A stretch of DNA of 64,000 nucleotides from positions 1 through 64,000 of the forward strand of contig JBKBRF010000033.1 of NCBI GenBank assembly GCA_046292385.1. Reading direction: 5' to 3'. Positions 1,821-33,200 of this stretch are shown here, piece after piece (within the stretch, counting starts at the first letter, position 1; each line of letters starts with the position of its first letter). Both the position numbers and the translations under genes were made by a program. Under the pieces are notes generated by a model. The model was not told the origin of the DNA, made no database searches, and saw only the letters and a list, made by a program, of their open reading frames with translations. Source of the stretch: Armatimonadota bacterium (GTDB taxonomy: Bacteria; Armatimonadota; SYMT01).

Positions 1821-1925
1821 CCGCCCCCGGCAGGCGATCCGAGCTGCCCGCGCGCCGCTCGCTGCGGCGGCGCGGGCAGTTTGGCGTACACTGAGGGGCA
1901 AGCCGCCGCTCGCCTCGCACCCCCG

Positions 1926-4015: not shown

Positions 4016-4021
4016 GGACTC

Positions 4022-4240
4022 TGGAACCTGATTCACCGCAGAGACGCAGAGGACGCGGAGAGAACCTCCGAACCAGGATCCGAACCCGACTTACCGCCAA
4101 GACGCCAGGAACGCCAAAGGGAACCAGCACGGAAAAACCCCGGAGTCGCTGTGCGGGACTCGAGACGCGTAGCAGGTCCAACTCTGGTTCCGGTTCTCTC
4201 CGCGCTCTCCGCGTCTCTGCGGTGAATCAGGTTCGGGAAG
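4022..4240. repeat. MITE/REP-like element family B, copy 1
   Basis: Terminal inverted repeats ATTCACCGCAGAGACGC...GCGTCTCTGCGGTGAAT; matches 57530-57760 in reverse orientation. Confidence 0.8.
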
Positions 4241-4245
4241 GCAGC

Positions 4246-5154: not shown

Positions 5155-5160
5155 CGTAAG

Positions 5161-5199
5161 AAAGGCTAAAGGTAAAAGGCTAAAAGGCGAAAAGGCGAA
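5161..5199. repeat. Short tandem heptamer-like repeat (AAAAGGC/AAAGGCT, about 5 units) directly upstream of the hpnC start
   Basis: aaaggctaaaggtaaaaggctaaaaggcgaaaaggcgaa. Confidence 0.7.
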
Positions 5200-5285
5200 C
5201 CGTGGGACCTCTTACTCGTTCTCACTCGCGGCGGTCCGGGAACGCTGCTGTACCCGGCGAGAGCGCACTGCTCCCGCAGGCTGCT

Positions 5286-5319
5286 TCTCCCACTCTCCCC
5301 TGCGCCCACTCCCCCACTC
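5286..5319. repeat. CCCACTC-unit repeat (family G)
   Basis: tctcccactctcccctgcgcccactcccccactc; relatives at 9861-9894 and 48951-49018. Confidence 0.6.
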
Positions 5320-5439
5320 AGTTCCATTTAGCACGCTGCCCGCCTCGGGCGATAGAGCGGGTAACCCGGTTGTTCGTTCTATCGTACGCGCTTCCCTGCT
5401 TCTCGTCACCCTTCGAGCAAATAAAAGTTTGCCAAATCG

Positions 5440-6162
5440 CTACTCGAGCAGGCAGCGGCGCAGGTCGGTGGCGTTCGGCAGGGCGTAGCCATGCCAGTCG
5501 TTGTTGAAGTAGGCATAGACGTCGAGCCCGTCGTCGAGGCAGCCGCGGAGGCGGTCGGCCCACTCCCGCAGCCGTTCCGGGGGATAGGTCCCGCCGTAGT
5601 TAGTGCCGTGGAAGCGGACGTAGACCCACGGCGCGGTGACCCGCCAGGGGTGGTCTGGGAGCAGGTCGTGGACGCAGAGCGCCGCCTCGTGGCGGTGGAG
5701 CAGCGCCATCACGTCTTCCCGGAGCCAGGAGGGGTCGCGGACCTCAATCGTCCACCGGTGCCGCTTCGGCGCCGCCTCCAGGAACGCTTCCAGGCGGGCG
5801 GGATTGGCCTTCCAGCGCGGCGGGAGCTGGACCAGGATCGGACCGAGGCAGCTTTCGAGCCGCTCCGCCCGCTCCAGGAAGAGCGAGAGCGACTCCCCCG
5901 GGTCCTTCAGCTTCTTCATGTGCGTGGCGTACCGGCTGTACTTCACGGCATAGAGGAAGCCGGGCGGCGCCTGCCGGCGCCACGCCTCGAAGGTGGCCGC
6001 TTCCGGCAGGCGGTAGAAGCTGTTGTTGATCTCGACGGTGTCGTAGCGCTCCGCGTAGAAGGCGAACCAGCGGCTCACCGGGAGCCCTTCCGGATAGAAG
6101 AGGCCCTTCCAGTGCTGGTACTGCCAGCCGGAGGTCCCGATCCGCGCCTCGCCCCGCCGCAT
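5440..6162 (-). CDS. DUF72 (YecE-like) domain protein
   Basis: RIGTSGWQYQHWKGLFYP, TVEINNSFYRLP, LGPILVQLPP, YAYFNND. Confidence 0.92.
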   Translation of the reverse strand: MRRGEARIGTSGWQYQHWKGLFYPEGLPVSRWFAFYAERYDTVEINNSFYRLPEAATFEAWRRQAPPGFLYAVKYSRYATHMKKLKDPGESLSLFLERAERLESCLGPILVQLPPRWKANPARLEAFLEAAPKRHRWTIEVRDPSWLREDVMALLHRHEAALCVHDLLPDHPWRVTAPWVYVRFHGTNYGGTYPPERLREWADRLRGCLDDGLDVYAYFNNDWHGYALPNATDLRRCLLE

Positions 6163-13865: not shown

Positions 13866-15002
13866 GTGAAGCCAGAGAGACGTCATCGCTGGGTTGCCGT
13901 GGCCTGTGCAGTAGTGGGTGTGGCCCTGGTGGTCGGGGGAGAGCTGCTCTGGCGGCAGAAGTCGGTTCCGGACTTCGATCCCCGGGCGCTGATCGACGCC
14001 CGCGAGGTGAGTGAGTTCCGTGCCCTGGATCAACCCCGCATGGTCTCCGGCGCCGAGGCGGACTTCCTCCACGACGACGACTACGTCCTCGGCCTCACCC
14101 TGAACGGCGAAAGCCGCGCGTACCCCTCGCGGTTCGCCTCGCTCCACCACGCGATCAACGACCAGGTCCAGGGCCAGGCGGTGGCGATCACCTACTGCAG
14201 CATGTGCGGTACCGGAGTCGGTCTGAACCCGACCGCGGGGGGACGCACGCTCACCTTCGACCTGTACGGCCTCTACTACGCAGTGGCTGCCGTCTACGAT
14301 CGCGAGACGAAGAGCGTCTGGACCCCCACTACCGGGCGGGCCATCCTGGGTCCGCTCGCCGGCACGCGCCTCGAGCGGTTCCCGCTGTTCGATACCACCT
14401 GGAAGGAATGGAAGCAGCTCCACCCGGACACCCTGGTCATGGCGCCGGACGAGCGCTTTGCGGAGCACTATCCCCCCGCGGACCAGCCGGAGCCGCGCGG
14501 CTATCCGCACTTCCCCCAGCGATCGATGGAGGCGAGCGTGACCCGCGGTGACCGGCGCCTCTCTCCATTCGAGAAGGTGCTGGGCGTCAAGGTGCCGGTC
14601 CCGGCCGGCGCTGCTTCCGGTGCGGACGCCGTCGCGCGCCGGGCTTACCCCATTGGAACGCTGGAGAGAGAGGGCAGCGTCGTCAATGACCAGCTGGCGG
14701 AATGGCCGATCGCGGTCTTCCTGGAACCGAAGAGCGTATCGGCGACCGCGGTCTCGCGCGTGCTGAACGGTCGGACGCTCACCTTCAAGGGGAAGCGGCT
14801 GCCGGACGGCCGCGTGGAGATCTACGACCGGGAAACCGGCACCCGCTGGAGCCTGCAGGGCCGCGGAGAGGCCGGCCCGCTGGCCGGACAGGAGCTGGCG
14901 TCGGTGGAGAGCCACCTTAGCGCGTGGTACGGCTGGTCGGCGTTCTTCCCGGACACCTCCATCTACCGGCGGGACGATCCGCCTCAACCGTTCGGCGGGT
15001 AA
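13866..15002 (+). CDS. DUF3179-domain membrane-anchored protein
   Basis: N-terminal TM; ESRAYP, ITYCSMCGTG, YDRETKSVW / YDRETGTRW duplication, WYGWSAFFPDT. Confidence 0.85.
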   Translation: MKPERRHRWVAVACAVVGVALVVGGELLWRQKSVPDFDPRALIDAREVSEFRALDQPRMVSGAEADFLHDDDYVLGLTLNGESRAYPSRFASLHHAINDQVQGQAVAITYCSMCGTGVGLNPTAGGRTLTFDLYGLYYAVAAVYDRETKSVWTPTTGRAILGPLAGTRLERFPLFDTTWKEWKQLHPDTLVMAPDERFAEHYPPADQPEPRGYPHFPQRSMEASVTRGDRRLSPFEKVLGVKVPVPAGAASGADAVARRAYPIGTLEREGSVVNDQLAEWPIAVFLEPKSVSATAVSRVLNGRTLTFKGKRLPDGRVEIYDRETGTRWSLQGRGEAGPLAGQELASVESHLSAWYGWSAFFPDTSIYRRDDPPQPFGG

Positions 15003-15122
15003 GCGCCGCCGGCCCGGGCACCCGCATCCAGGTATCGACCGGTCGGGCGGGTCCTGGTCAGAAGGATCGCGCCGGGACCCGGAGGCCCCGGCGCGCAGGT
15101 CGCCAATCGGCAGATCAGGACC

Positions 15123-16415
15123 TCACTCGTCTTCGCCGGACCCCTCTGTCGCCGAGCGCAGGTAGTGGTGGAGGATGTAATTGCCCACCTTTCGCCCCTG
15201 GAGCGCGCCGGCTTCCTGGTCGAATCGGAAGTGGATGCCGCCATAGACGCGGGCGTCGGAGATGTCGTCGGTGATTTCCTTCCAGGACGTGTAGTTGAGC
15301 ACGAGCCCCGGCAGCGAGGGATGGGTCAGGGTTAGGTTCTGCCCGTGCTCGCCGAAGATGCGCTCGAGGATCACGCGCGGGGCCCCGGAGACCGCTCCAT
15401 GGCCGGAGCCGTAGCTCGGATGCGTCGGCGTAGAGAGCAGCGGCGTCCAGGTCGGGTCCGGCTCCGTGAGAGTGTTGCCGTCTTCATCTCCCCTCCGGAT
15501 CGCGGCCTGCGGCCGCCACATGCGGTAGAAGTACTTCGTCTCCCACACCGCAACCGTGGCATCCACCATCGCCATATTGATGAGTGCGAAAATCCGCGCG
15601 TTTTCAGAGAGCGTCTTCCCCTGGGCGGCGCTCTCCTGCCGCGCGACCGTGTTCCAGATCTGCACCGGTGAGGCGGCGTTGTAGTACCGGGCCACATTCT
15701 CCCGGTCCAATGACCGGAACGGGTTGGGGCCTGCCCGCCCGAGGAGCTTCACCTCGTTGTAGTCCGCCGCGTACCGCCCGCTGTTCATGGCAGGGGGCGG
15801 CGGACAGCGGAACTGCGAGCTGGAACTCAAGCCGAAGGGGACGACCGATCCCCAGTTCGGAAGGAAGGCCGCTGCGGGGGCGGGATTGAAGTCGCCGGGA
15901 AGTCCGGTGCTTGCGTAGGGGAGCGGGAGGTTCCATCCGTCGTTCGCACGAAGGGCGAGCATCACTTCCGCCGCCCGGCGGCCCGTCTTGATGCCGGCCT
16001 CGTGGTCATCCCCTGGGAGCGCCAGCAGCGCCTGGTTGAACTCGTTCGTGAGCTGCGTCAGGAGGTCGGGGGCCGCCAACCACAGGCTCTGACGCAGCTC
16101 CACCAGCGTGTAGTAGGAGGCCGCGATGGCGGCCGCCTCCGGCTCAGCCCCCGGCTCGGGGTCGAAGCCGCCGACGTAAGGCTCGTAGTCGCCCGTGATC
16201 GAATTGACCGCCTCGAAGACCGCCAACTGCGTGATGGCGGCCCAGCGGGCCTGGAAGAGCGGGTTGCTCGGGGCGCTCGGCGGAGCGTTGACCGACACCA
16301 CCCGCTGCATGATCTCGTTCCACCCCGTAACCGTGTCGGCGCGTGCGGGACGGGCGCCCATCAGCACCAGCATCGCGACGGCCAGGTAGGCCAGTGGCTG
16401 AAGAAGCCGTTTCAT
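15123..16415 (-). CDS. Secreted vanadium-dependent haloperoxidase-like (PAP2 superfamily) protein
   Basis: Signal peptide; KYFYRMWRP, PTHPSYGSGHG, ARVYGGIHFRFD vanadate/phosphate-binding motifs; GAGGAGG RBS. Confidence 0.88.
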   Translation of the reverse strand: MKRLLQPLAYLAVAMLVLMGARPARADTVTGWNEIMQRVVSVNAPPSAPSNPLFQARWAAITQLAVFEAVNSITGDYEPYVGGFDPEPGAEPEAAAIAASYYTLVELRQSLWLAAPDLLTQLTNEFNQALLALPGDDHEAGIKTGRRAAEVMLALRANDGWNLPLPYASTGLPGDFNPAPAAAFLPNWGSVVPFGLSSSSQFRCPPPPAMNSGRYAADYNEVKLLGRAGPNPFRSLDRENVARYYNAASPVQIWNTVARQESAAQGKTLSENARIFALINMAMVDATVAVWETKYFYRMWRPQAAIRRGDEDGNTLTEPDPTWTPLLSTPTHPSYGSGHGAVSGAPRVILERIFGEHGQNLTLTHPSLPGLVLNYTSWKEITDDISDARVYGGIHFRFDQEAGALQGRKVGNYILHHYLRSATEGSGEDE

Positions 16416-16489
16416 CCGTCTGCCTCCTCATCGGCGCACTCTCCGGGACGGAGAGGCCGGTCGCCCGGGAAAGCGGGAGACCTGCCCTC

Positions 16490-16560
16490 AATGTAACCGT
16501 CCACCCTCTCGGGACTCTCCCAGGTGAGGGGTGGAAGGAACACTCTCGGAAGCCTCTCAG
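16490..16560 (-). promoter_or_regulatory. SARP-box-type promoter 1: -10 TACATT plus four direct repeats
   Basis: + strand: aatgta 16490-95; ctctcgg 16506, ctcccag 16517, ctctcgg 16543, ctctcag 16554. Confidence 0.75.
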
Positions 16561-16624
16561 CGCTGCCTGGCTCCCCGGCGCTCCGTCCGATCCAACAGAT
16601 CCGTCCGATCTGCCGAAGGCAAGG

Positions 16625-16654
16625 AAAAGCCGAACCCGTCTGGGGGTCCGGCTT
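16625..16654 (-). terminator. Intrinsic terminator after the Kelch gene
   Basis: Minus strand AAGCCGGACCCCCAGACGGGTTCGGCTTTT, a hairpin with a T-tail. Confidence 0.7.
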
Positions 16655-16681
16655 CATCCTTCGGAGCGGCTCGAGCCCAAC

Positions 16682-18310
16682 TCACCTGGTGATGGTGATG
16701 TACGTGTAGGCCGTCGCCGGGCTGACACCCGCCTTGGTGATGGTGACGGTAATCCGGGAGGATGAGCGCCGCGGCTGGAACTTGTGCTTTCCCGTGACGG
16801 TGAACCCGCCTCCGGCCTTCACCTGGATGGTTCCACTGGAGGAACCGCCGTCTCCCCATTGAATGGTCGCCTTGTAGGCAGTCGCTGCGGACGGGTTCAG
16901 GTCCGTAAAGTTCGCGACCGGCCCAGAATACTGGCTGCTGCCGGTGACGATGTTGAGGCCCGTGGCGCTCAACTGCGGCGTCACCCTCGCGTAGCCGCTC
17001 GAGACGCCCCAGGAACCGTCGGCCGCAGCCACGGTGATCCGCATTACAAGGGTGCCCGGGGTGGTGTAGGTGTGCGACCCTGCCACGCTGAACCCGCCGC
17101 TGCCGTTGGCAGTGATGAGACCGACGGACGTCTGCCCGTCCCCCCACTGGATGGAGGCGTTGAAGTCCGCGGCTCTGGTCGAGCGTGGGTCCGTGAAGCT
17201 AGCGACAACTCCCGTAAACGCGACCCTTTCGATCGCCTGGATCGACGCGGCCGTGACGTTGGGTCCCGTGGTCTGGTAGACCTCTACCTGGCGCTGTGTC
17301 AACAGATACCCGTCCCAGCTCTGGTCCCATCCGCCCAGAACATAAATGCTCCCGTCCTGGCCCATGGTTACGGCCGGCAGGTCGTGTACGGCGTTCGGCC
17401 GCGCCACGGCGGCCCAGCTATCCCGAGCGGGATCGTAAGCCTCGACCGAGTTGTAATACACCCAGCCGTATTCGTCGAAGTCGCTTCCGATCGCGTAGAT
17501 CCGGCCATCCCCGGCGGGACTCAGGTGGACACCCTCGGTGTGCCCGGCCGACAGAGGGGCGAGCGACTCCCAGGCGTTCGCGAGCGCATCGAATCGGTAG
17601 ACGGCGGTGCTTACGGCGCCATCCGGGTTATAGCCGCCGGCGAAATAGATTCGCCCCCCGGCGTCGCTCGTCACACCTGCCCCCTGGAGGAGCCTGATCG
17701 GAGGGTCGATTCGCGGAGACCAGGCGTTCGTGGCGATGTTGTAGGCGATCAGGTACGGAGGCAAGGGAACGCCGTCGTGTCGACCGACTATGGCGTAGAT
17801 CCGGCCGTCGTTCCCCACCGCCGCCGAGTTGACGTGTTCCGTAGACGGATCGATGGGCAGCGACGCGATGGGCGACCACTGGTTGGCACGGGTGTCGAAG
17901 GCTTCCGCACGGGTGGCATAGGGCTCCGCCAGGTCATAACCCTGGAAACCGCCGATCGCGTAGATGCGCCCGTCCCGGCCGGTGACACATCCGAAGTAGG
18001 CGCGACGATTGGCCATAGGGGCCACGGAAACCCAGGTGCCGGTCCGGCGATCGTAGGCAAACACCGCCGCCGAATAGTTCCAGCCATCGTGGCCGCCGAG
18101 GACGTAGACGCGGCCGTCTGGACCGGTGGCCGCGCCGGCCCACCCGAGACCGACAGGCATGGGTTCGACATACTTCCACGTGCCCACGTCGGCCCGCGCG
18201 GGGCCGGCGGCGCAGCAGAGCAGCACCGCTGCCGTCGCAAGACATTTGAAGGAACCCCGGAGCATCGACATCCCTTTCGCCAGGCCCATTCGCTTGATGG
18301 CCAGTTTCAT
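16682..18310 (-). CDS. Secreted Kelch-repeat protein with two C-terminal PKD/Ig-like domains
   Basis: Six Kelch repeats (DGRVYVLGG, DGRIYAIGG...); two ASIQWGDG/ATIQWGDG domains; signal peptide ending PARA; exact start uncertain. Confidence 0.85.
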   Translation of the reverse strand: MKLAIKRMGLAKGMSMLRGSFKCLATAAVLLCCAAGPARADVGTWKYVEPMPVGLGWAGAATGPDGRVYVLGGHDGWNYSAAVFAYDRRTGTWVSVAPMANRRAYFGCVTGRDGRIYAIGGFQGYDLAEPYATRAEAFDTRANQWSPIASLPIDPSTEHVNSAAVGNDGRIYAIVGRHDGVPLPPYLIAYNIATNAWSPRIDPPIRLLQGAGVTSDAGGRIYFAGGYNPDGAVSTAVYRFDALANAWESLAPLSAGHTEGVHLSPAGDGRIYAIGSDFDEYGWVYYNSVEAYDPARDSWAAVARPNAVHDLPAVTMGQDGSIYVLGGWDQSWDGYLLTQRQVEVYQTTGPNVTAASIQAIERVAFTGVVASFTDPRSTRAADFNASIQWGDGQTSVGLITANGSGGFSVAGSHTYTTPGTLVMRITVAAADGSWGVSSGYARVTPQLSATGLNIVTGSSQYSGPVANFTDLNPSAATAYKATIQWGDGGSSSGTIQVKAGGGFTVTGKHKFQPRRSSSRITVTITKAGVSPATAYTYITITR

Positions 18311-18383
18311 CCCACTCTCTCCCGAAATGGTGGCACTCTCCCGATGGAGGTGCGGGCCGCCCTGGAGCGGGAGTCCCAGCCTG

Positions 18384-18454
18384 AATGTAACCGGCCGCTC
18401 TCTCGGGACTCTCCCAGGGGAGGGGTAAAACGAACTTTCTCGAAAGGCTCTCAC
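18384..18454 (-). promoter_or_regulatory. SARP-box-type promoter 2: -10 TACATT plus four direct repeats
   Basis: + strand: aatgta 18384-89; ctctcgg 18400, ctcccag 18411, ttctcga 18437, ctctcac 18448. Confidence 0.75.
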
Positions 18455-18473
18455 CAGGCAGGAGCCCGAAAGT

Positions 18474-18502
18474 AAAGCCGAACCCCTCCTGGGAGTCCGG
18501 CT
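18474..18502 (-). terminator. Intrinsic terminator after the prepilin-like gene, similar to 16625-16654
   Basis: Minus strand AGCCGGACTCCCAGGAGGGGTTCGGCTTT. Confidence 0.65.
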
Positions 18503-18553
18503 CATCCTGCTTCTTTCGGAAACGGCCAACTGGCCGCGTCAGGGATTAAGCGG

Positions 18554-19468
18554 TCACGTGCTGATCGCGCTGGGGTGGACCGTCATGTTCGGCTCCTGTT
18601 CCGGCCGGAAGAGCAGCATGCGTCCGCAGGGGTCGACCCACGCCTGCGCGATGGTGCCGTCCGCGTGGTAGCGGAACGGCTCCGTCGCCGGGTCGGTGTT
18701 CATCGTGGTCCCCCCCACCTTCTTCCACCTGGCGTGGCCGTCCGCGTAGAGCCAGTGCTGGCCACCGTGGTGCGCCTCGGGGCGACCGTTCATGAACATC
18801 TGGACATAGAAGGTGCCCCGCGCACCGGTGCTGGTCCTCCCGGTGGCGGGATCACAGTCTCCCAGCCGGAAGGGCCAGGCACTCTCCGGCGCGAAGAGCG
18901 GGTGGACCCCGGGGTTGATCTGTCCGGCTCCCCGCCATCGGGAGCGGCCGGTCTCCCAGAGCAGCGGCACGAGCGCCGGGTAGCGGACCTCGGATTGGTT
19001 CAGCGCGCCCAGCAGCCCGTTGAACGAATAGCTGATCTCCGTCGGCTGGACGCCGGGGGTGAGGTTCGCCATCGCTGGATCTCCGGGGATCAGGTCGGCG
19101 GTCTCACCCGAGGGGCAGGCCCAGATCTTGTAGCTCCGGGTGTACGCGTAGACGGCATTGGGGCCCTGAGAGCTGTACCACGCCAGGTGTTCGGGTGAGC
19201 TCCGGTCGACCACCAGGTTGGGCGGCGAGTAGTAAGCCAGCCGGCCGGCCCGGTCGGGAGCCTGGGCGCCGAGGGGAAAGAGCTCGTCGTGATCCTGTAC
19301 GTAGAGCATGAAGGCATTGCCGAGCTGCCTCAGGTTTGAAAGGCAGGTCGCCGCTCGACCCTTCTCCCGCGCTGCCGCGAGTACCGGAAAGAGCAGCGCC
19401 GCCAGGATGGCGATGATCGCGATCGCCACCATCAGCTCGATCAGCGTAAAGGCACGTTTGCGGGACAT
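18554..19468 (-). CDS. Prepilin-type N-terminal cleavage/methylation protein (DUF1559, H-X9-DG C-terminal motif)
   Basis: RAFTLIELMVAIAIIAILAALLFPV..AREKGR..TCLSNLRQLG; HHGGQHWLYADGH. Confidence 0.92.
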   Translation of the reverse strand: MSRKRAFTLIELMVAIAIIAILAALLFPVLAAAREKGRAATCLSNLRQLGNAFMLYVQDHDELFPLGAQAPDRAGRLAYYSPPNLVVDRSSPEHLAWYSSQGPNAVYAYTRSYKIWACPSGETADLIPGDPAMANLTPGVQPTEISYSFNGLLGALNQSEVRYPALVPLLWETGRSRWRGAGQINPGVHPLFAPESAWPFRLGDCDPATGRTSTGARGTFYVQMFMNGRPEAHHGGQHWLYADGHARWKKVGGTTMNTDPATEPFRYHADGTIAQAWVDPCGRMLLFRPEQEPNMTVHPSAIST

Positions 19469-19499
19469 CGGAATCTCCTGTGTGCGCGCGGAGATAAAG

Positions 19500-20108
19500 T
19501 CACTCTACAGTGCCGGCGCCGTGGGCGGCCGGGTCAAAACCGGCGGGCCAGCGGGTGCCGCGGTTAAAGCCGGCGCGTTCCAGGATGGCGCCAGTCAGGT
19601 TCGCACCGTCAAGGTTCGCGTCGTCCAACTGGGCGTCGGACAGGTTGGCGTTTGCCAGGTTGGCCCCCGAGAGGTCGGCGCCGCTGAGGTTCACCCCTTC
19701 GAGGCGCGCCCCGGTGAGATTGGCGCCGGGAAGGCGTGCCCGGGCGAGCTGGGAGCCGGTGAGAGAGGCGCCGGAGAGATCGGCGCGACTCAGGTCCGCT
19801 TCCGTCAGGTTCGCCGTGCGGAGGTTGGCGTTTCTCAGGTTCGCCCCGGCGAAGCTCCGGCCGTGGAGCGCTGCCCGCTCCAGGTTGGCCGGCCCGAGCC
19901 GACCGGGCAGGAGGAACCCGGCGACGGCCACCACTCCCACCGCGGCGGCCAGCAGCCAGCGGCTCTGGAGCGTCGCGATCCCATTCCGGATTCGTTCGCT
20001 CACCGGCGCGGGCGCCGCCGCCACGAGCTCGGCTCCGCAGTCATAGCAGGAGCTCTTCCCGGCCGGGTTGGGGGCGCCGCAGCGGCTGCAAGGGTTCATC
20101 CGGGACAT
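19500..20108 (-). CDS. Zinc-ribbon + TM + pentapeptide-repeat protein
   Basis: CSRCG...CYDCG; TM segment; A(N/D)L repeats; TRWPAGFDP tail. Confidence 0.88.
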   Translation of the reverse strand: MSRMNPCSRCGAPNPAGKSSCYDCGAELVAAAPAPVSERIRNGIATLQSRWLLAAAVGVVAVAGFLLPGRLGPANLERAALHGRSFAGANLRNANLRTANLTEADLSRADLSGASLTGSQLARARLPGANLTGARLEGVNLSGADLSGANLANANLSDAQLDDANLDGANLTGAILERAGFNRGTRWPAGFDPAAHGAGTVE

Positions 20109-20117
20109 TAGGCGCTC

Positions 20118-23100
20118 CTACCTCGCTCCGCCTGCCGCCGGCCGGACATCCGGCACGGTGACCGCGGCCTGGAACGGCCACATGCGTTGAACGCGCCGGC
20201 GATCGGTCTCGTTGAACGTGGCGGCGCGCCAGAGCCGCACCCTCCCGTCACCGGCTCCGGCGGCCAGCATGCGGCCGTCCGGGGAGAACACCGCCGAGTT
20301 GATGAAGTGAGAGCCGACGTCGAGCGAGGCGACCTCCCGGCGGGCAGTGACGTTGACGTTATAGATCTTGACCACCCGGTCGGTGCTGCCCACGGCCAGG
20401 CTGTTGCCGTCCGGCGAGAAGGCCACCGAGTAAATGTAGCCGTGGACCCCCTTCAGCGTTGCCGCGGGCAGCTCCGCTTTGCCGGCCCCGGGAACGGGCC
20501 GCGTCACGTCCCACAGGCTGACATTCCCGTCGGACTGGCCGGCGGCGATCAGCCTGCCGTTCGGTGAGAAAGCGATCGAAAGCGAGTAGCCGCCGCGAGG
20601 CGAGAGTATCCGGGGTGTCTGGTCCTCTCCCCTCGCGATCTCCCAGAGGCGGATGGTCCGATCCTGGCTGGAGCTGGCCACCATCCGTCCGTCCGGCGAG
20701 AATGCGACACACGCGACCGGTGCGGTATGCGCCTGCAGAGTGGCGATCTGGTGGACCGGGCGCTCGGCCACGTTCCAGAGCCGGACGTTGCAGTCTCCTT
20801 CCGCCGAGGCGAGGGTGCGGCCGTCGGGCGAGAAGGCGAGGGAGTAGATCCCGTGCGCGTGCCGCTTCAAGGGCCGGATCAACTCTTCTCGGGTCTCGAC
20901 GTCCCAGAGGCGAATGGTGCTGTCCGCGCCCGCCGTGGCGAGGGTGCGGCCGTCGGGGGAGAACGCCACGGAGAAGACGGCGTCCTTGTGCCCCTTGAAG
21001 GTAGCGGGCGTCTGGCTCCGGCCCCCGGACACCTCCCAGAGGTAGACGCTGCGGTCGAACCCCGCGGTCGCGAGCCTCTTGCTGTCGGGGGAGAACGCCA
21101 CCGCGGCGACGGTGTCGTCGTGGCGGGGGAGATGGTCCTGATCGGCGCTGACGGAGGAGGGCCACAGCTTCACGGTCCCGTCCGCGCCGGCGGAGGCGAG
21201 GGTTCTGCCATCCGGCGAGACAGCGACGCAGTGGACCTCCGCGCGGTGTCCAGCGAGTGTGCGGAGCAGCTCGCCACGCCCGTTGTCACGCGGGGTACTC
21301 ACGTCCCAGAGCATGATCGCGGTGTCCCAGCCGCCCGAGACCAGCATCTTGCCATCGGGGGAAAACGCCAGCGAATGCACGTTCGTGGAGTGGCCCCGAA
21401 AGCTTCGCAGCAGCTTGCGGGTGCGCACGTCCCAGAGTCGGCCGAACCCGTCCACTCCACCCGCCGCCAGGAGTGAGCCGTCGGGCGAGAGCGCAAGCGA
21501 GGTGAACGCCACCTGCCGGCGGCGGCTGTTGGCGGCGGCCCCGTCGAACGGCCGCTTTCGGAAGTTCGCGGTCGCGAAGATGCGTCCGTTGCTTAGCGTC
21601 CGGGCCCCGGGCTTCGCCTCCGCCAGGCTCCAGGTCCGGATCGTGTCGTCGCCGGCGGACGCGAGAGTCTTTCCGTCCGGAGTAAAGGCGACCACGAAGA
21701 CCCGGGCCGTATGTCCCGTCAGGGTCAGCGCGGTCTGGTCCTGACCCTTCACCATGTCCCACACCCGGATCGTCCGGTCGTCGCTGGCAGTCGCCACCTT
21801 CCCGCCGTCCGGGGAGAAGGCAACCGACCAGACGATGCCGTTATGCGCGGGAATGCTCATCACCTGGCGGCGGGAGGGGACATCCCAGATCCTGAGTGTG
21901 CCGTCCAGGCTTCCGGAGGCGAGTCGCCGTCCATCGGGTGAGAACGCGACGCAGTCCACCTCTTCCGTATGGCCGGTCAGGGTGGCGACTTCATGGCCCG
22001 TAGCCGCGTCCCACAGCCGCACCGTGCGGTCTCCGCCCGCGGAGGCGACACGGCGTCCGTCCGGGGAGAAGGCGACGGAGGTAACCACCCCTACGTGCCC
22101 GGTAAAGGTCGCGCTGGCCTCGCCCTGGCAGAGGCGCCAGAGATAGCGCCACTCGAACCCCCGCACGTCCGCGTCGCCGGGTCGGGGGCGGTGTCCTTCT
22201 AACAACTCCGCCGCCCGGGCAAGATCCCGCCGCTCCCAGGCGCGCTGGGCGAGGTTCATGTCCGCCGCGTAGAGGTAGTGCTCCGCCATCCGCCGATTCT
22301 GGGCTTCCCGCTGTGCCGTGCTGCGCTCCGAGAACGCCAGACCGCCGATGACCGCCATAATCGCGGATGAGACGGCGGCGGTGCGCAGGAGCCCCCGCCG
22401 GAACGCGGCTTTCTGGCGGCGCACCTCCGCATCCGGCATGTGCAGCCTGACCCAGTCCAGATCGAAGACCCGCTCGTAGATCCGGTTGCGGACGGCCAGG
22501 AATGCCCTGCACTTTCTTCTCGCGGGCAGTCCCACCTGATCGGCGACGCGGACGATCCCCGAGAGGCGCAGGAGGCTGACCAGAGGGTTGTTCTCGTCGC
22601 CGCTCACCCGCTTGCCGCGCCGCACCAGCCCGTAGAGATCCAGGAGGGCGGCGAGATCGACCTCGCTTCGCAGGAGACGGTCCCGCACGAAGAGCAGGTT
22701 GTCGTCCCGCTCCCGGGCGGCCAACGAGAGGAACAGCGCTTCGCAGACCCGATCCACGCCCGCGGCATCGCGGACGGTCCCATCCTGGACGACGGCCAGG
22801 CAGAGGCGCTGCGTCAGGTACGGGTGCCCGCCGGTCCAGAACAGAGTGCGCCGCAGCAGAAGGCCGGCGTGGCTCTTCCCCAGTCCCGGCACGTCGCGCT
22901 TCTCCAGGCCGAACGCCAGCGGCATGGCCTCCGCTTCGGTGAAGTCCGTGAGCTCGATCCGGCGGCCGATGTTGAACGGGGTGGTGCGGGTGTCCTGAAT
23001 CAGGTCCGAAGGAGAAGCGACGCCGAGCAGGCAGAAGGTGAGCCGCTCGTAGCGCGGGTCTTCCGACCGCCGGTTGAAGCAGGCGCGGAGAGCGGCGAAA

Positions 23101-23588
23101 AACTCGTCCGTGGAGAACGGGAGGGAGCGCACGGTATCGATCTCGTCGATGAAGATCACCAGCCGCTGGCCGGGTCCGCAGGAGAGCGTCACCACGGTGG
23201 GAAGCACCACCTCCCGGAGCGCCCGCACCCAGCGCTGCAGCGGGCTCAGGTGCGCGTGCTCCCTCCAGAACCGGTGCAACTCCCGCTCCAGGTCCAGCTG
23301 CTCGCCGATGATGCCCAGCAGCCCCTCGTACCACTGCTCGGGGGAGAGGTTCTGGCCTAGCGTGGTGAGGTCCAGGACTGCGACGCTCGTGCCCACCTCA
23401 CGCAGGCGCACCGCCGTGCGGACCATCAGGGAGCTCTTACCCATCTGCCGGGCGGTGAGGAGATAGCAATACTCCCCTTGCAGCAGCGCGTGGTACAGCT
23501 CGTCGTCCGCCCGTCGTTCCACGTACGAGGGCGCCTCCGGACGGAGGGTTCCCCCCGTGACGTAAAAGCTGGAAGTGAGCGTCTTCAC
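20118..23588 (-). CDS. AAA_35-type P-loop NTPase + hydrophobic segment + about 14 WD40 repeats
   Basis: FYVTGGTL..APSYVER.AD; ARQMGKSSL; IFIDEID; TPFNIG; 14 GH/AFSPDG/WD repeats. Confidence 0.93.
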   Translation of the reverse strand: MKTLTSSFYVTGGTLRPEAPSYVERRADDELYHALLQGEYCYLLTARQMGKSSLMVRTAVRLREVGTSVAVLDLTTLGQNLSPEQWYEGLLGIIGEQLDLERELHRFWREHAHLSPLQRWVRALREVVLPTVVTLSCGPGQRLVIFIDEIDTVRSLPFSTDEFFAALRACFNRRSEDPRYERLTFCLLGVASPSDLIQDTRTTPFNIGRRIELTDFTEAEAMPLAFGLEKRDVPGLGKSHAGLLLRRTLFWTGGHPYLTQRLCLAVVQDGTVRDAAGVDRVCEALFLSLAARERDDNLLFVRDRLLRSEVDLAALLDLYGLVRRGKRVSGDENNPLVSLLRLSGIVRVADQVGLPARRKCRAFLAVRNRIYERVFDLDWVRLHMPDAEVRRQKAAFRRGLLRTAAVSSAIMAVIGGLAFSERSTAQREAQNRRMAEHYLYAADMNLAQRAWERRDLARAAELLEGHRPRPGDADVRGFEWRYLWRLCQGEASATFTGHVGVVTSVAFSPDGRRVASAGGDRTVRLWDAATGHEVATLTGHTEEVDCVAFSPDGRRLASGSLDGTLRIWDVPSRRQVMSIPAHNGIVWSVAFSPDGGKVATASDDRTIRVWDMVKGQDQTALTLTGHTARVFVVAFTPDGKTLASAGDDTIRTWSLAEAKPGARTLSNGRIFATANFRKRPFDGAAANSRRRQVAFTSLALSPDGSLLAAGGVDGFGRLWDVRTRKLLRSFRGHSTNVHSLAFSPDGKMLVSGGWDTAIMLWDVSTPRDNGRGELLRTLAGHRAEVHCVAVSPDGRTLASAGADGTVKLWPSSVSADQDHLPRHDDTVAAVAFSPDSKRLATAGFDRSVYLWEVSGGRSQTPATFKGHKDAVFSVAFSPDGRTLATAGADSTIRLWDVETREELIRPLKRHAHGIYSLAFSPDGRTLASAEGDCNVRLWNVAERPVHQIATLQAHTAPVACVAFSPDGRMVASSSQDRTIRLWEIARGEDQTPRILSPRGGYSLSIAFSPNGRLIAAGQSDGNVSLWDVTRPVPGAGKAELPAATLKGVHGYIYSVAFSPDGNSLAVGSTDRVVKIYNVNVTARREVASLDVGSHFINSAVFSPDGRMLAAGAGDGRVRLWRAATFNETDRRRVQRMWPFQAAVTVPDVRPAAGGAR

Positions 23589-23716
23589 GCAGGTTCCTGG
23601 CTCTGTACCGGCTGCACCCGTCCGCTCCGCCGCGTCTGGGTGGCCACTCGCTCACCCACCCGCCATTCCGAGTCGCTGCTCTTCGTTCGAGGACCCGGCC
23701 CCGGCACGCTGCTGAT

Positions 23717-23787
23717 ACTGTAGCTGGGGTCCGTCTCGGAGCTCTCTCAAAACCAGCGTCTCCGCAAGTCTCTCAGAACTCTCTCAC
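23717..23787 (-). promoter_or_regulatory. SARP-box-type promoter 3: -10 TACAGT plus four direct repeats
   Basis: + strand: actgta 23717-22; gtctcgg 23733, ctctcaa 23744, ctctcag 23770, ctctcac 23781. Confidence 0.72.
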
Positions 23788-23805
23788 CACCGCGGGGGCG
23801 GGCTT

Positions 23806-25677
23806 TTACATGGCCAGCTTGCGGTGGAGGAAGCGAGCATAGACTTCACACCGAAGGCGCGCCGCACCCGATGCCTCTCCGGTGAGGACCCCGGCGCTGC
23901 GCAGGCGGAAGAAGCTCTCCGCGGAGGGGCACGGGTGTCCGTCCAGCACGGCGCGGAGCGCCTGGGTGAGGTCGGGATCCCGCGCCAGAGCGGCGAGCAA
24001 GCGGCGAAGGTGATCGCTGAAGATTCCTTCCTCTCGCTCCGCGTCGGCTTCGAAGGCATCGATCGGCCGCTGGCGCGGGTCCGACTCGGTCCCATGCCGC
24101 GTCGCCATCTCGTGGAGGCCGCGCCGCACGAGGTAGGGATGACCGCCCACCAGCCGGTAGAAGCGCCCCAGCTCCTTCGCGTCGCGGAGTGGCCCGCCGT
24201 ACCGGCTGTTGAGCTCCGCCACCTGGTCCCAGGTGAAGTCCTCCAGCACCAGGCGCGTCCCCACATTGAAGGGCGAATGGTTCAGGTCGCTGATGAAGAG
24301 GTGCGCCTCCGTGGCGTAGGCCATCGCGAGGGTCAGCCGGCCCCACGGCCCGGCGGGGTCCAGGGCTCGCTCGTTGTGCCACGAGCGGAAGATGCCAAAT
24401 ACCTCGCTGGCAAACCCGCACGAGAACAGCCGGTCCACTTCATCCAGCCCCCACACCAGGCGGGTCTCCAGCCGGCCCAGGACCTCCCGGCGCAGGTAGC
24501 GCCGGAGGCTCAGTCCTGCGCCGCCGCCTTCCCACGTCTCTGTGGGAACCCTATCTAGCTCCAACTGCTCGGAGATCCAGCTGGCGAGGACCCGGAACAG
24601 CGAGTCGGCCGAGGCAAGGTGCGCCTCGCTGAGGACCTGGAAATCGGTGAAGACCACCCGCGCTCCCGCCTCGCGCGCGTGCTGGAGCTCCCGGGCCAGG
24701 AGCGAGGTTTTGCCCACCTGGCGAGCGCCCTTTACCAGGACCAGGCTGTCCCCCCGCTTCACGGCCTGCCGGAACTCGCGATCCGCCGGGCGCGGCAGGT
24801 AGAACCGGGAGCCGAGCGGTACCGCCCCGCCGACCGGCTCCAGAAGCTCCCGGGGGACGGGGGGTAGAGAGGGCTCCGGCGCCGTGTCGCTCGCGCGCTC
24901 CGCTGGTACCGCCGTATGGGCGGGGCTGGCGGAGCCTCCCGCCAGCTCCGCGGCCAGTGCCCGGGTAGCGGCAGCTGGGGCAGCGTTCAACTCGCCCTTG
25001 AGGTGGGCCGCCAGCTCTTCGTAGTGGCGAAGCGCGGCGGCCGGCTGTCCCATCGCCGCGTGCAGCCGCATCACGGCGCGATGCGCGGTCTCGCGGAGTG
25101 GATCCGAATGCGCCGCGCGCAGGGCATAGAACAGCGCGCGCTCGTACTCCGCCATCTTCTCCAGCTCGGCGGAGAGCTGCTCCAGTGCCTGGAGCAGCAG
25201 CGAGCGAAGGCGGTGCTGCTCCGGAGGGATCCAGTCGTCATAGAACCCCGGCAGCAGCTCTCCCCGATGAAGATCCACCGCTTGCACCAGCAGGTCGATC
25301 CGCTCTTCGGACCTCGAAACGGAGCGGGCGGCCCGCAGCCCGGCCTCGAACTCCCAAACGTCCGTCGTCACCGCGGCCGGATCCAGATGGACGGAAAAGC
25401 GGTTGGTCACCAGCACGGCGCCGTCCGGCACTCCCGGGGGCTCCAGATCGCGCCGGAGAGAGGAGAGCGCGACACTCAGGTTGTGCCGGCTGGACTCGAC
25501 GCTGCCCTCCGGCCAGAGCAACCCGACCAGCACCTCGCGCGGATGACCGCGCGGAAGGTGGTAGGCCAGGTACGCCAACAGCGCCGCGGTCTTCTGAGTG
25601 CGGAATTGCGTGATCTCCCGCTGGCCCTGGTTCACCCGCAGCCCGCCGAGGAGTTGGATCCTGCATCGAGTCTCCAT
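23806..25677 (-). CDS. SARP-family transcriptional activator (winged HTH + BTAD) fused to an AAA_35 NTPase
   Basis: [76 protein letters not shown]. Confidence 0.92.
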
Positions 25678-25927
25678 GCAGCCTCCTTGCCGCCCTGAAC
25701 GACGCCGCGCCACCCCGGTTTCCGGGAGCACCGGACAAACTGTTTCCCACATCGACTAAGACGCTTGTTCTCGCCAAAGGCAGACTCCTTGCTATATGCC
25801 ATGACGTGGGGAATACGGAGGGGTTCCGTCATCGGTTTTACGACGATGGGGTGCGACCGCACGGTGGAAGCTGCTTACAACGAGAGATTGCAAGCTGCAC
25901 GCGAGGGCGAGTCTCCGTTCAAGAGCA

Positions 25928-26170
25928 CTACTGCTCACTGGAGTAGCAGCAGGCACCTCCACCGGTGGTGGTTGGGATCCTGCTCCACGCCAGGGATGAC
26001 CGCACCAAACCAGGCGACAGAGGGTCCAGGTGCAACGCCTCGCCCGCAACCTGCGCCAGCCGCCAGACGAACCGCTCCAGGATCCGCGTGCGGTCCATGA
26101 GGGTCCGTCGGCTCCAGCCCTGGGCCTTGCCGGTGATCCAACGGCCAACGGCGCGATTGAGATCGACTCC
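25928..26170 (-). pseudogene. Likely remnant of a tyrosine recombinase/integrase N-terminal (core-binding) domain
   Basis: Hand translation LNRAVGRWITGKAQGWSRRTLMDRTRILERFVWRL...LDPLSPGLVRSSLAW; no clear start and no catalytic domain; about 190 bp from the tRNA 3' end. Confidence 0.5.
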
Positions 26171-26363
26171 GGACGCCGGGGCGCAGCGATGCGGGAGCTC
26201 CGGGCGGCGCCCGGGGTGGAGACGGAAACAGCCGCCCGCCCCAGTCGAGGGGTAGAGGGTCTGAGCTGCGTTTTCAGCTCCTATCGAAGGATCGAAGGAG
26301 CTGGCGGATCAGGGAGTAGATGCGCTGTTTGTGCCTGATGTGGGAATCGGCACCGCTGAAAAG

Positions 26364-26436
26364 TGGGTCGGCTGGGACTCGAACCCAGGACCACCTCCTT
26401 AAAAGGGAGATGCTCTACCGACTGAGCTACCGACCC
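26364..26436 (-). tRNA. tRNA-Lys (anticodon TTT), CCA not encoded
   Basis: Cloverleaf GGGTCGG-TA-GCTC AGTCGGTA GAGC-A-TCTCC CTTTTAA GGAGG-TGGTC-CTGGG TTCGAGT CCCAG-CCGACCC-A. Confidence 0.96.
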
Positions 26437-26480
26437 ATGCCCCGCGTGCGGAGGAGACCGTCCGACCGAAAGGCGCGCGT

Positions 26481-26489
26481 AGTATAGCA
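26481..26489 (-). promoter_or_regulatory. Extended -10 element for tRNA-Lys
   Basis: TGCTATACT about 45 bp upstream of the tRNA. Confidence 0.55.
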
Positions 26490-26659
26490 CACCGCGCGCC
26501 CGGCTGCTACCTCTTCCGCGCCGCCCCGCGCCGGCGGCGCCCCGGCGGGCGGACAGGGAGTGTAAACTGAGTCCGGCCGGGCAATACCTTCTCCTGGAGG
26601 CGCGCGCCTGGCTGCTCCGAGCCCCGGGGCTCGCGATCCGCGCCGGTGTCTGGTACTGC

Positions 26660-30267: not shown

Positions 30268-33200
30268 ATGCCTACTGAACCCTCGTCTTTTCTCCACCTG
30301 GGCACCGCCGCCACCCTGATCGGCGCCGCCCTCTCCGTGCTTCAGATGGCGCCTGCCGAAGAGGCAGAGGCCCCGTTCCGAGCGGAGCTCCTGAGCCGGG
30401 AGCAGCTCGCCGAGCGGGCGCGGCAGCTGGCGCGGGAGCACCGGGTGCTCCCCGGAAGGCAGCGCGGGCGCCCGCTGCTGCGCCGGGTGGAGGAGAGTGC
30501 GCGGTCGCTGGTCCGCAGCTACCAGGCGATCGCGGCGGCGGCGCGCCGGGGCGAGCCGGTGACGCCGGCCTCGGAGTGGCTGCTCGACAACTTCCACATC
30601 GTGGAGGAGCAGATCACCGGCATCCGCAAGCACCTGCCGCGCACCTACTACGCGGAGCTGCCGAAGCTGCGGGACGGGGAGCTCGCCGGCTACCCGCGGG
30701 TCTACGCGCTGGCGCTGCTGATCATCTCCCACTCCGACGGCGCGCTGGACGAGGAGACGCTGGCGGAGGTGGTGCAGGCGTACCAGAGCATCTCGCCGCT
30801 CAGCATCGGCGAGCTCTGGGCGGTGGCGATCATGCTGCGCGTGGGGCTGGTGGAGAACCTCCGTCGCCTCACCGAGCCGCTGGAGGCCCAGCGCCTGGCG
30901 CGCGCGGAGGCCGACGCCTGGGCGGAGCAGGTGATCGCCGCCGCGGCGAACGGCGCCTCCGAAGTAGCAGTGGTGCTGGGACAGCTCGCCGGGAGCCGGC
31001 TGCGGCTGCGGGACCCGTTCGTCGTGCGACTGGTCCAGCGGCTCCGCGGTCGCGGCGCCGCGGTGCAGCCAGTGCTCGACTGGCTGACGCGCCACGTCTC
31101 CGGCCAGGGCGGTCCCACCATCGAGGAGCGGGTCCGCGCGCAGAACCAGCTGCAGGCGGCGGACCAGGTCTCGATCAGCAACACGATCACCAGCTTCCGG
31201 CTGCTCGACCGCATCGACTGGGCCTCCTTCTTCGAGAAAGTGAGCCTGGTCGAGGCGGTGCTCCGGCGAGATCCCGCCGGGATCTACACGCAGTGCGACT
31301 TCGCCACGCGGGACGCCTGCCGGCATGAGGTGGAGCGGATCGCCCAGCGCAGCAACTCCACCGAGCTGGAAGTTGCCACGGAGGCGATCGACCTCGCCCG
31401 GGAGGGAGAGGCGCGCCGTCCCGGAGAGGTGCGACGGGCGCACGTCGGTTATTACCTGATCGACCGCGGCTGCCGGGAGCTGGAGCGGCGGTCGGAGTAC
31501 CGCCCCACTTCCGGCGAGCGGGTCCATACCTGGGTGCTGGACCACCCGACCGCCATCTTCCTCGGCGCAATCACGCTTTTCACCGTGCTCTTCACGGCGA
31601 TCGCGGTCTGGTACGCCGCCGTGGCCGGGCCGGATGCCTCGCCCTGGCTGGTGGCGCTGGCCGGCCTGGCGGCGCTCATCCCCGCCAGCGATCTGGCGGT
31701 CTCCGTGGTCAACCGCACCACCACGCTGCTGCTCCGGCCGCGCGTGTTGCCGAAGCTCGACTTCAGCACCGGCACGCCGACGGAGTTCCGCACGCTGGTG
31801 GTGATCCCCACGCTGCTCACCAGCGAAGAGGGGGTCGACGAGCTGCTCGACAACCTGGAAGTTCACTACCTGGCCAACACCGACCGGAACCTCCACTTCG
31901 CGCTGCTGACTGACTTCGCCGACGCGCCGCAGGAGGAGATGCCGTCCGACCTGGCGCTCCTCCACCGCGCCATCAGCGGCATCCTGCGGCTGAACGACCG
32001 GTATGAGGGGGTCAACTGCTATCAGCGGTTCTACCTCTTCCACCGCCCCCGCAAGTGGAACCCGTGCCAGGAAGTCTGGATGGGCTGGGAGCGGAAGCGC
32101 GGCAAGCTGATGGAGCTGAACCGGCTGCTGCGCGGCGCGGAGGACACCAGCTACCAGATCGTGATCGGCGACCGCGAGGCGATCCAGGGGGTGAAGTACA
32201 TCCTCTGCCTCGACTCGGACACGCAGCTTCCGCCGGAGTCGGCCCACCGCCTGATCGGGACGATGGCGCACCCGCTCAACCGCCCGGTCATCGATCCGGA
32301 GACGCGGCGCGTGGTGGAAGGCTACGGGCTGCTCCAGCCGCGCGTGAGCATCAACCTGCCGAGCGCCGCGCAGACGCTTTTCACCCGCATCTTCTCCGGG
32401 AACGCCGGGGTCGACCCCTACACCACGGCAGTCTCCGACGTCTACCAGGATCTCTTCCGCGAGGGGATCTTCTGCGGAAAGGGGATCTACGATCTCGACG
32501 CCTTCGAGCAGGTGCTAGAGGGGCGGGTCGGCGAGAACGAGCTGCTGAGCCACGACCTCTTCGAGGGCAGCTTCGCCCGCTGCGCGCTCGCTACCGACAT
32601 CGAGCTGTTCGACGACTACCCGGCCCGTTACAACAGCCACGCCGCCCGGCAGCACCGGTGGATCCGGGGCGACTGGCAGCTCCTGAAGTGGCTGGCGCCG
32701 CGGGTCCGGCAGCCCGCCACCGGGGGGCGCCCGGGCCCGAACCCGCTCTCCGCCATTGCACGGTGGAAGATCTTCGACAACCTCCGCCGGAGCATGGTGG
32801 CGCCGGCGCTGGCGCTGATGCTGGCGCTCGGGTGGCTCGTGCTGCCGGGAGAGCCGGTGGTCTGGACTCTCGGCGCGCTCCTGGTGGTGCTCTTCCCGAT
32901 CTACGCGCACCTCGCCGGCGCGCTCATCGTCGATCCGCGCGCCGTCCCCTGGACCAGCTACTTCTGGAACGTCTGGTACGACGCGCTGACCAACCTGGAG
33001 CAGGGGGCGCTCACGCTGAGCTTCCTGATGCACCAGGCGGTGAACGCGGTCGACGCGGCGGTGCGCACCCTCTGGCGCATGTTCGTCACCCGACGGAACC
33101 TGCTGGAGTGGACCACCGCCGCCGCCGCGGAACGGATGCTCGGCTCGGACCTCGTCAGCTTTACCCGGCGGATGGCGCCGTCGGTTGCCGTCTCCGCCCT

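Follow-up and report, generated by a model that had tools for sequence, protein, structure and literature searches.

In the passages of PMC10936776 that describe them, SARP promoters carry direct repeats at intervals of 11 or 22 bp, with 8 bp between the 3′ repeat and the −10 element, and AfsR sits on two 11-bp repeats as two protomers side by side, which contact the first 8 bp of each repeat and leave 3 uncontacted; the AfsR box, centred at −29.5, overlaps the −35 element, the protomers touch sigma region 4 and the polymerase core, and inhibition is relieved by ATP binding to the C-terminal NOD. PimR, in the part of PMC5930380 concerned with its operators, has a main and a secondary operator in one promoter, and a review states that SARPs are 'exclusively found in actinobacteria' (PMC10972967). 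Here we analysed a 64,000-nucleotide stretch of an Armatimonadota genome (the window, C33:1-64000 of an assembly of 7,043,135 bases in 91 contigs, 98.45% complete and coded G000 in our phylum set), in which three minus-strand sites combine two pairs of direct repeats with a −10-like box beside the gene for a SARP-type regulator (winged helix, BTAD, AAA_35). Judging from the sequences, we consider it likely that the three sites are activator-dependent promoters and form the local regulon of this adjacent regulator, and by homology a SARP dimer probably takes the place of a −35 element on the proximal repeat pair; binding, activation, the transcription start sites (TSSs) and a role for the distal pair are what we infer from these data.

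Compared with AfsR at the Streptomyces coelicolor afsS promoter (PDB 8K60, 8HVR), the locus has the same SARP fold, two 11-bp direct repeats with about 8 conserved and 3 variable positions, a box over the −35 position (centre at about −28.5 here versus −29.5 for AfsR) and a C-terminal NTPase, which in AfsR gates activity through ATP according to the relevant passages of PMC10936776. Between the end of the conserved octamer TGAGAGAG and the −10 box there are 8 bp, which is equivalent to a hexamer followed by 10 bp, and in this octamer register all three sites show the 11-bp phasing, the −35 overlap and the gap of about 8 bp that make up the SARP promoter rule as those passages word it. The locus differs from AfsR in its host (Armatimonadota, not an actinobacterium), its C-terminal module (AAA_35, versus NB-ARC plus TPR), its box consensus (TGAGAGAG), an extra repeat pair 37 bp upstream, targets that are not biosynthetic, and V and S at the regulator positions aligned to AfsR T88 and R92 under an inferred chain-numbering offset.

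With PimR-type SARP-LAL regulators, as far as the domain and operator passages of PMC5930380 go, the common features are large SARPs with a nucleotide-binding C-terminus and heptamer repeats with 4-bp spacers; the main and secondary operators of PimR are comparable to the proximal and distal pairs here, and the box-linked SARPs of two relatives (G126, L075) carry a guanylate-cyclase-like segment, like the one described for PimR. In the same passages the main PimR operator lies off the −35 element and is read as class I, whereas the proximal pair here stands in the −35 position, and the PimR repeat is CGGCAAG, versus YGAGAG here. The SARP promoter grammar itself is known; the phylum, the box consensus, the C-terminal module and the non-biosynthetic targets are new. 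A literature search on SARP/BTAD, AAA_35 and Armatimonadota gave, among the matches listed, none on SARP boxes in Armatimonadota, the only listed paper joining SARP/BTAD with an Armatimonadota term being a soil survey.

Three sites with a common geometry

Read 5′ to 3′ on the minus strand, each site consists of YGAGAG, 5 nt, YGAGAR, 20 nt, TGRGAG, 5 nt, CGAGAS, 10 nt and TACAKT, with the hexamers at offsets 0/11/37/48 in all three. An earlier reading made from the letters alone (the sequence-only reading) had placed plus-strand heptamers at 16506/16517/16543/16554, 18400/18411/18437/18448 and 23733/23744/23770/23781, and these starts are exact, the heptamers being CTCTCGG/CTCCCAG/CTCTCGG/CTCTCAG at site 1, CTCTCGG/CTCCCAG/TTCTCGA/CTCTCAC at site 2 and GTCTCGG/CTCTCAA/CTCTCAG/CTCTCAC at site 3. 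Likewise, a minus-strand TACATT or TACAGT lies exactly 10 bp from the nearest repeat at all three sites, as had been claimed. The spacing of the repeats stood, but the heptamer as their unit did not: a unit of 11 bp fits better, with a consensus over 30 repeats of T-G-A-G-A-(G/C)-A-(G/C)-T-n-n (8–9 conserved and 2–3 free positions). Across the phylum the box consensus is TGAGAGAGTTn twice, 10 bp, and TAnnnT, around the conserved octamer given above.

Site 3 has its distal box at 23765..23786, where the 11-bp direct repeats TGAGAGAGTTC and TGAGAGACTTG begin 19 nt past the SARP stop codon, its proximal box (TGAGAGAGCTC and CGAGACGGACC) in the −35 position at 23728..23749, and its −10 box, TACAGT, at 23717..23722, from whose position a TSS is predicted near 23710. 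At site 2 the distal box (TGAGAGCCTTT and CGAGAAAGTTC) occupies 18432..18453, the proximal box (TGGGAGAGTCC and CGAGAGAGCGG) 18395..18416, and the −10 box TACATT 18384..18389, with a TSS predicted in the same way near 18377. The corresponding elements of site 1 are a distal box at 16538..16559 (TGAGAGGCTTC and CGAGAGTGTTC), a proximal box at 16501..16522 (TGGGAGAGTCC and CGAGAGGGTGG) and a −10 box, TACATT, at 16490..16495, which would put the TSS near 16483. All these elements lie on the minus strand.

The view that these sites are promoters gained from three observations: they lie 67–122 nt upstream of the downstream minus-strand start codons, sites 1 and 2 are preceded by a strong hairpin with a U-rich tail, and no sigma-70 consensus promoter was found in 15000-26500, which fits promoters without a −35 element. 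The last observation also makes an unusual −35 equivalent conceivable in a phylum whose promoter conventions are uncharacterised, so that an RNA polymerase with an alternative sigma factor might read the elements directly, or they might act as constitutive UP-like elements with no dedicated activator. We hold this to be very improbable: hexamers phased at 11 bp would stand 10 and 21 bp from the −10 box, distances that match no sigma spacer, a general sigma regulon would have many more sites than three in 7 Mb, and the linkage of the box to SARP genes described below would be left unexplained.

The pattern YGRGAS-N5-YGAGAS-N10-TANNNT matched three times in the window, against a mean of 0.02 in 100 dinucleotide-preserving shuffles, none of which reached three (0/100), and a slightly looser expression for the proximal pair and −10 box gave three matches in the whole assembly, both strands included, which were sites 1–3 only. 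The pattern is thus above chance expectation in the window (3 observed versus 0.02 expected). Four GAGAG cores by themselves are unspecific, as spacings of 22, 31, 39 and 47 each give four matches of at least 18/20, the same as spacing 37; because other spacings match equally often, we dropped a score of the four cores in favour of patterns in which the Y position and the −10 box also count. The signal resides in the complete grammar, and GA-richness is not its source.

Sites 1 and 2 are not independent of each other. Their non-motif cores are identical at 30/40 positions, their promoters, leaders of about 67 nt and upstream hairpins align, and they are, by this alignment, paralogous DNA copies of promoter, 5′ leader and upstream terminator. 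Site 3 compares with site 1 at 26/30 positions in the motif, 16/40 in the non-motif core and 23/80 in the flanks, the last being about the background expected for DNA of 69% GC. Since sites 1 and 2 are duplicates and site 3 retains every distance, we count two independent instances and not three. The earlier proposal of selection on spacing rather than simple duplication concerned the third copy, where the flanks are at background and all distances are kept.

We then derived a weight matrix of 37 nt solely from 15 foreign sites and applied it to both strands of the genome, 14 million positions; the foreign sites had been found with a pattern derived from this locus, so the matrix is independent only at the positions which that pattern left free. 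Its three highest scores in the genome were the proximal boxes of site 3 (24.6, the genome's best), site 1 (23.3) and site 2 (22.9). The next-best score was 12.5, for the distal pair of site 2 (rank 4 genome-wide), and the distal pairs of sites 3 and 1 ranked 7 and 10. The assembled genome contains just three full boxes. One candidate for a fourth site, C38:27550 (CGAGAG-N5-CGAGAG-N8-TAGAGA), was rejected, having the wrong gap and falling outside the top 20 of the matrix scan.

These results bear on the simplest alternative, namely that duplication and chance in GA-rich, high-GC DNA produced the sites without any function. Sites 1 and 2 clearly are duplicated DNA, the four GAGAG cores are equally frequent at other spacings, and phylum-wide totals equal their controls (see below), but site 3 has the whole grammar with flanks at background identity, the window holds far more matches than its shuffles, and a matrix made from foreign sites puts exactly these three on top of the genome. 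Such an origin is extremely improbable and already close to refuted.

Soil-metagenome contigs from other studies cover all three sites: 16307-16793 (0 differences) and 16491-16804 (4 differences) at site 1, 18285-18949 (3 differences) at site 2, and 23617-24000 (14 differences, 1 gap) and 23593-23766 (8 differences, 1 gap) at site 3. Among the differences listed, four near site 3 (23647, 23673, 23684 and 23727) are all outside the hexamers and the −10 box, which is a weak hint of motif conservation.

Across the phylum, letting the gap between the last hexamer and the −10 box vary from 5 to 15 bp gave 26 matches (two of them overlapping at one site), whose gaps were 10 bp in 12, 6 bp in four, 9 bp in three and spread over 8, 11, 12, 13 and 15 bp in the other seven. 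All 10 SARP-adjacent matches have a gap of exactly 10 bp. A preference for the 10-bp gap, and with it the idea of selection on spacing, thus extends beyond this genome. The full 0/11/37/48 geometry has a narrower reach: it holds for the three sites here and does not extend to foreign sites, where the 37-bp distal pair is missing (0/15). In one relative, G002, an inverted hexamer 6 bp upstream stands in place of the distal pair at all three of its sites. In locus L026 of the same genome (G002:C26, at about 4110-4240), the box promoter before the AAA_35-WD40 gene occurs as a tandem duplicate with a period of 64 bp. Each copy reads TCTCTCA-N6-TGAGAC-N5-TGAGAG-N10-TATCCT, an inverted half-site preceding the direct pair, and the layout at G002:C49 is the same.

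The regulator and box-linked SARP genes

The gene adjacent to site 3 (23806..25752, minus strand; 648 residues as listed) encodes a SARP-like regulator with a winged helix, a BTAD and an AAA_35 NTPase. Pfam BTAD (PF03704) matches residues 130-270 at 72.7 bits (cut-off 22.1) and AAA_35 matches at 230.9 bits, the C-terminal half being without TPR; in the G002 homologue the winged helix passes the Pfam Trans_reg_C cut-off at 32.8 bits. A phmmer search of the PDB matched only AfsR (E 7.4e-4, residues 30-266). A structure model of residues 1-290, made from an 11-sequence alignment, had a predicted local distance difference test score (pLDDT) of 86.7, with residues 1-25 below 50; because these residues are disordered in the model, the true start is probably Met26, at which the homologues begin too. 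The six best PDB fold matches of the model were AfsR (8K60/8HVR) and EmbR (2FEZ/2FF4), at E 6e-12 to 6e-10 over 250-254 columns and with template modelling (TM) scores of 0.64-0.76 for AfsR and 0.53-0.68 for EmbR, depending on the normalising length, and the matches ranked below these six were generic TPR. Since the model superposes on the whole SARP domains of AfsR and EmbR, we take the SARP domain of the regulator to be real.

In terms of the family, the regulator has an OmpR-type winged helix (by fold) followed by a BTAD, and in the place of the C-terminal NB-ARC/NOD ATPase plus TPR of large AfsR-type members it carries AAA_35. An actinobacterial host and a biosynthetic cluster, which are a habit of the family rather than a structural feature, are both lacking. 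The nearest named records encoding relatives of the regulator come from Chthonomonadaceae and other Armatimonadota assemblies, and the many proteins with DUF1559 and a prepilin motif fit a placement in Armatimonadota.

The binder had been proposed to be this adjacent SARP, and a scan of relatives had been suggested as a check. We searched 201 genomes of the phylum for the box pattern and located BTAD domains in 20 other match-bearing genomes, which together with G000's own regulator covers 21 of the 22 genomes with matches (G196, with one match, was left out). Of the 29 matches covered in this way, 13 share contig and strand with a BTAD gene (three in G000, two in G002:C26, three in G126:C187 and one each in G129, G183, G198, G087 and G142), while the other 16 look like background and have poorer repeats. 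In all eight of these genomes, G000 included, a box begins 18-158 nt past the stop codon of a SARP gene on the same strand (open reading frames (ORFs) called); by a rough estimate, only a few percent of random positions would lie that near a BTAD gene, at roughly 2-24 BTAD genes per 4–7 Mb genome. G126 has a further box upstream of its SARP gene, and boxes stand 27-293 nt upstream of the SARP gene itself in G126, L075, L076 and L129. Together with the SARP fold, this recurrent linkage of box and SARP gene supports the proposed binder at the level of sequence.

A second set consisted of 79 loci (780,095 bases) around relatives of the regulator in named assemblies, in which the pattern was searched with a gap of 8–12 bp. 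It gave three matches, all with a gap of 10 bp, on the SARP strand and 98-293 nt upstream of the SARP ORF, in two Chthonomonadia/Chthonomonadaceae assemblies and one Anaerolineaceae assembly. The last (L129) encodes at 484-5556 a Chloroflexota SARP of 1647 residues fused to nSTAND1 and WD40 repeats, and TGAGAC-N5-CGAGAC-N10-TATTGT precedes its own start by 130 nt; the grammar of the box may therefore reach beyond Armatimonadota. The box-linked SARPs have three C-terminal architectures (AAA_35; NB-ARC plus TPR; cyclase-like plus NB-ARC plus TPR), the SARP domain being their only common element, and the alignment shows that they have in common a recognition-helix region, RH-x-LS-x-ALSSLR. In G005:C1, which encodes a regulator of 48% identity, a triple repeat (TGGGAGTTCTG, TGAGAGTTCTG and TGAGAGTCCGT) lies 9 bp from TATGCT and 66 nt after a pair of SARP and AAA_35-repeat genes; G003:C265 has TGAGAG-N5-TGAGAG right after its SARP without a clear −10 box, and G001:C107 has a single TGAGAG 13 bp from TACATT.

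Several observations weigh against assigning the sites to the SARP. Phylum-wide, the loose pattern is no commoner than its reversed control (30 matches in 22 of the 201 genomes versus about 26 with the gap fixed, 26 versus 27 with the gap free); what stands out is only the SARP-linked subset with a 10-bp gap, and the very sites under test had served to derive the pattern. The genomes are relatives of one another, which makes the comparisons not independent. The distal pair at 37 bp (−37/−26) is peculiar to this genome, as noted above. No box lies just downstream of the close SARP homologues in G006:C232, G003:C202, G005:C8, G005:C4, G006:C298 and G004:C231, and the pattern scan found none in the upstream region of the regulator gene itself. 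The Trans_reg_C score of the regulator, 22.1 bits, is under the Pfam cut-off of 26.2. Finally, actinobacterial SARP heptamers have the consensus TCGAGXX, and if the CGAG cores are aligned to it the gap becomes 10 bp, 2 bp off the 8-bp rule.

Part of this would be expected if the repeats were bound by another winged-helix protein of the OmpR/PhoB family, for example a response regulator encoded elsewhere, the SARP gene being a mere neighbour or target. In the pho box of E. coli and at class II promoters of PhoB, two direct repeats, 11 bp in period and placed some 10 bp upstream of the −10 box, stand in for the −35 element and accommodate a head-to-tail tandem of winged helices, so the periodicity, the −35 replacement and the 10-bp gap are alike; the regulator's own promoter is without a box, and some boxes of relatives have no SARP on their contig (two in G077, G002:C49 and G069). 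Unlike PhoB, however, the linked regulator here has no receiver domain and carries a BTAD and an NTPase, and the repeat sequence differs. Moreover, such a protein would not account for a box linked to SARPs of three C-terminal architectures, in eight genomes and three named assemblies, with the SARP domain as the sole common element, and the ORF just upstream of the box in G077:C408, rich in TPR and interrupted by the contig end, could be a truncated SARP. We judge a binder of this kind improbable and prefer the adjacent SARP.

Predicted transcription units of the locus

The regulator, the operon genes and the Kelch and PAP2-like genes are all on the minus strand. The first predicted target, downstream of site 3, is an operon of three genes, beginning with an AAA_35-like NTPase fused to WD40 repeats (20118..23588; 1156 residues; WD40 by Pfam). 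The region 22764-23693 matches residues 261-559 of the SARP protein with 33% identity (E 3.6e-21), the N-terminus reads FYVTGGTL...GKSSL, and the G002 counterpart matches Pfam AAA_35 at E 3.7e-19; by sequence comparison the NTPase of the WD40 protein is a paralogue of that of the regulator. A gene for a zinc-ribbon and pentapeptide-repeat protein of 202 residues (19500..20108) begins 9 nt after it, followed by one for a protein of 304 residues with a prepilin-type N-terminal methylation motif and DUF1559 (18554..19468; Pfam).

Recurrent in the phylum is a two-gene module: an AAA_35 protein, often with a fused SARP domain, and immediately behind it, in the same orientation, a more divergent AAA_35 protein (1000-1700 residues) with WD40 or other repeats. 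It occurs here at 20118-25752 (minus strand) and also at G005:C8, G005:C1, G006:C298, G002:C26, G004:C231, G198:C120/C156/C208/C260/C2, G126:C15 and G183:C1. The arrangement of these genes suggests a paired STAND-like signalling unit.

In G129 and G183, which belong to another family, the prepilin-motif/DUF1559 protein family likewise comes directly after a SARP box. There, in L065 (G129:C1, 7718-10070) and L066 (G183:C1, 5507-8163), the box is followed by genes for a prepilin-motif/DUF1559 protein and then a DUF2092/AhpC-TSA redoxin; the recurrence of the DUF1559 class in these targets and in the operon of site 3 hints at a theme common to these regulons. At 19258-19554 of the window, soil-metagenome contigs pile up to a summed depth of 15-161, versus about 1-20 in neighbouring bins. 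The region encodes the DUF1559 gene's conserved prepilin N-terminal methylation motif, so that numerous paralogues and other organisms, rather than this locus, are the probable source of the excess.

A terminator-like hairpin with a 12-bp stem followed by UUUACUUUC (18475..18503, minus strand; −26.1 kcal/mol, z −2.1) closes the WD40 operon upstream of site 2. The predicted target of site 2 is a Kelch-repeat protein of 542 residues (16682..18310) with a signal peptide ending ARA|D, and after its gene, upstream of site 1, lies a second terminator-like hairpin, followed by UUUUCC (16622..16660, minus strand; −32.7 kcal/mol, z −4.1). The two hairpins are paralogous by alignment. They would, with their U-rich tails, isolate the transcription units, which supports the promoter reading. 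Site 1 precedes the gene for a PAP2/vanadium-chloroperoxidase-like (VCPO-like) protein of 430 residues (15123..16415), again with a signal peptide ending ARA|D. The minus-strand 5′ leaders of the PAP2-like (16415-16483) and Kelch (18310-18377) genes are themselves paralogous and have in common GGAGAGTGC, a stretch just before the ribosome-binding site region that resembles the repeat core. Neither PADLOC nor NCBIfam gave a system-level classification for the six genes.

On the other side of the regulator, about 610 nt upstream of its gene, lies a tRNA-Lys gene (anticodon TTT; 26363-26436, minus strand), itself preceded by a TATACT box. The block of the SARP regulon begins right after this tRNA gene, a placement frequent in genomic islands. 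An ORF of 2976 residues (30268-39198, plus strand) lies about 5 kb beyond the regulator.

Proposed activation and its meaning

If the −10 hexamer is placed at −12 to −7, the proximal repeat pair (11-bp direct repeats, consensus TGAGAGAGTTn) would span about −39 to −18, with its centre at −28.5, and two protomers of the regulator could bind it side by side. The pair would thereby replace the missing −35 element and bring the regulator up to sigma region 4 and the core of RNA polymerase, in the manner of the AfsR structure, and the constant 10-bp distance from the last hexamer to the TAnnnT box would set the register. The distal pair, 37 bp upstream at about −76 to −55, would probably be bound by a second dimer held via the AAA_35 NTPase domain, which would make activation cooperative and nucleotide-gated. 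The predicted outputs are the operon for the paralogous AAA_35-WD40 protein, the pentapeptide-repeat protein and the DUF1559 pseudopilin-like protein, and the two secreted Kelch-repeat and PAP2/VCPO-like proteins.

A bolder joint reading, which we regard as unlikely, takes the box as a phylum-wide SARP promoter code (TGAGAGAGTTn twice, a set gap and TAnnnT) that is wired at this locus into a self-amplifying STAND-type switch. The SARP-AAA_35 protein would induce the paralogous AAA_35-WD40 sensor, and the two NTPases would co-assemble into a nucleotide-dependent oligomer that wraps or bends the DNA to bridge the proximal box and the distal one, 3.5 helical turns (37 bp) upstream, giving switch-like expression of the secreted Kelch and PAP2/haloperoxidase-like proteins. 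If true, such a self-amplifying switch would mean that, away from secondary metabolism, a SARP serves as output module to a STAND signalling pair of two proteins. The 37-bp distal pair and the recurrent pairing of SARP-AAA_35 and AAA_35-repeat genes do point to a higher-order assembly.

The literature treats SARPs as actinobacterial antibiotic regulators, whereas here the full SARP promoter grammar occurs in Armatimonadota and at one Anaerolineaceae locus; in Armatimonadota it is tied to a box consensus of its own, to non-biosynthetic targets and to a different NTPase module. In a phylum for which hardly any regulation or promoters are known, the locus gives a concrete candidate regulon, and by the same route SARP targets in uncultured bacteria become predictable from sequence alone.

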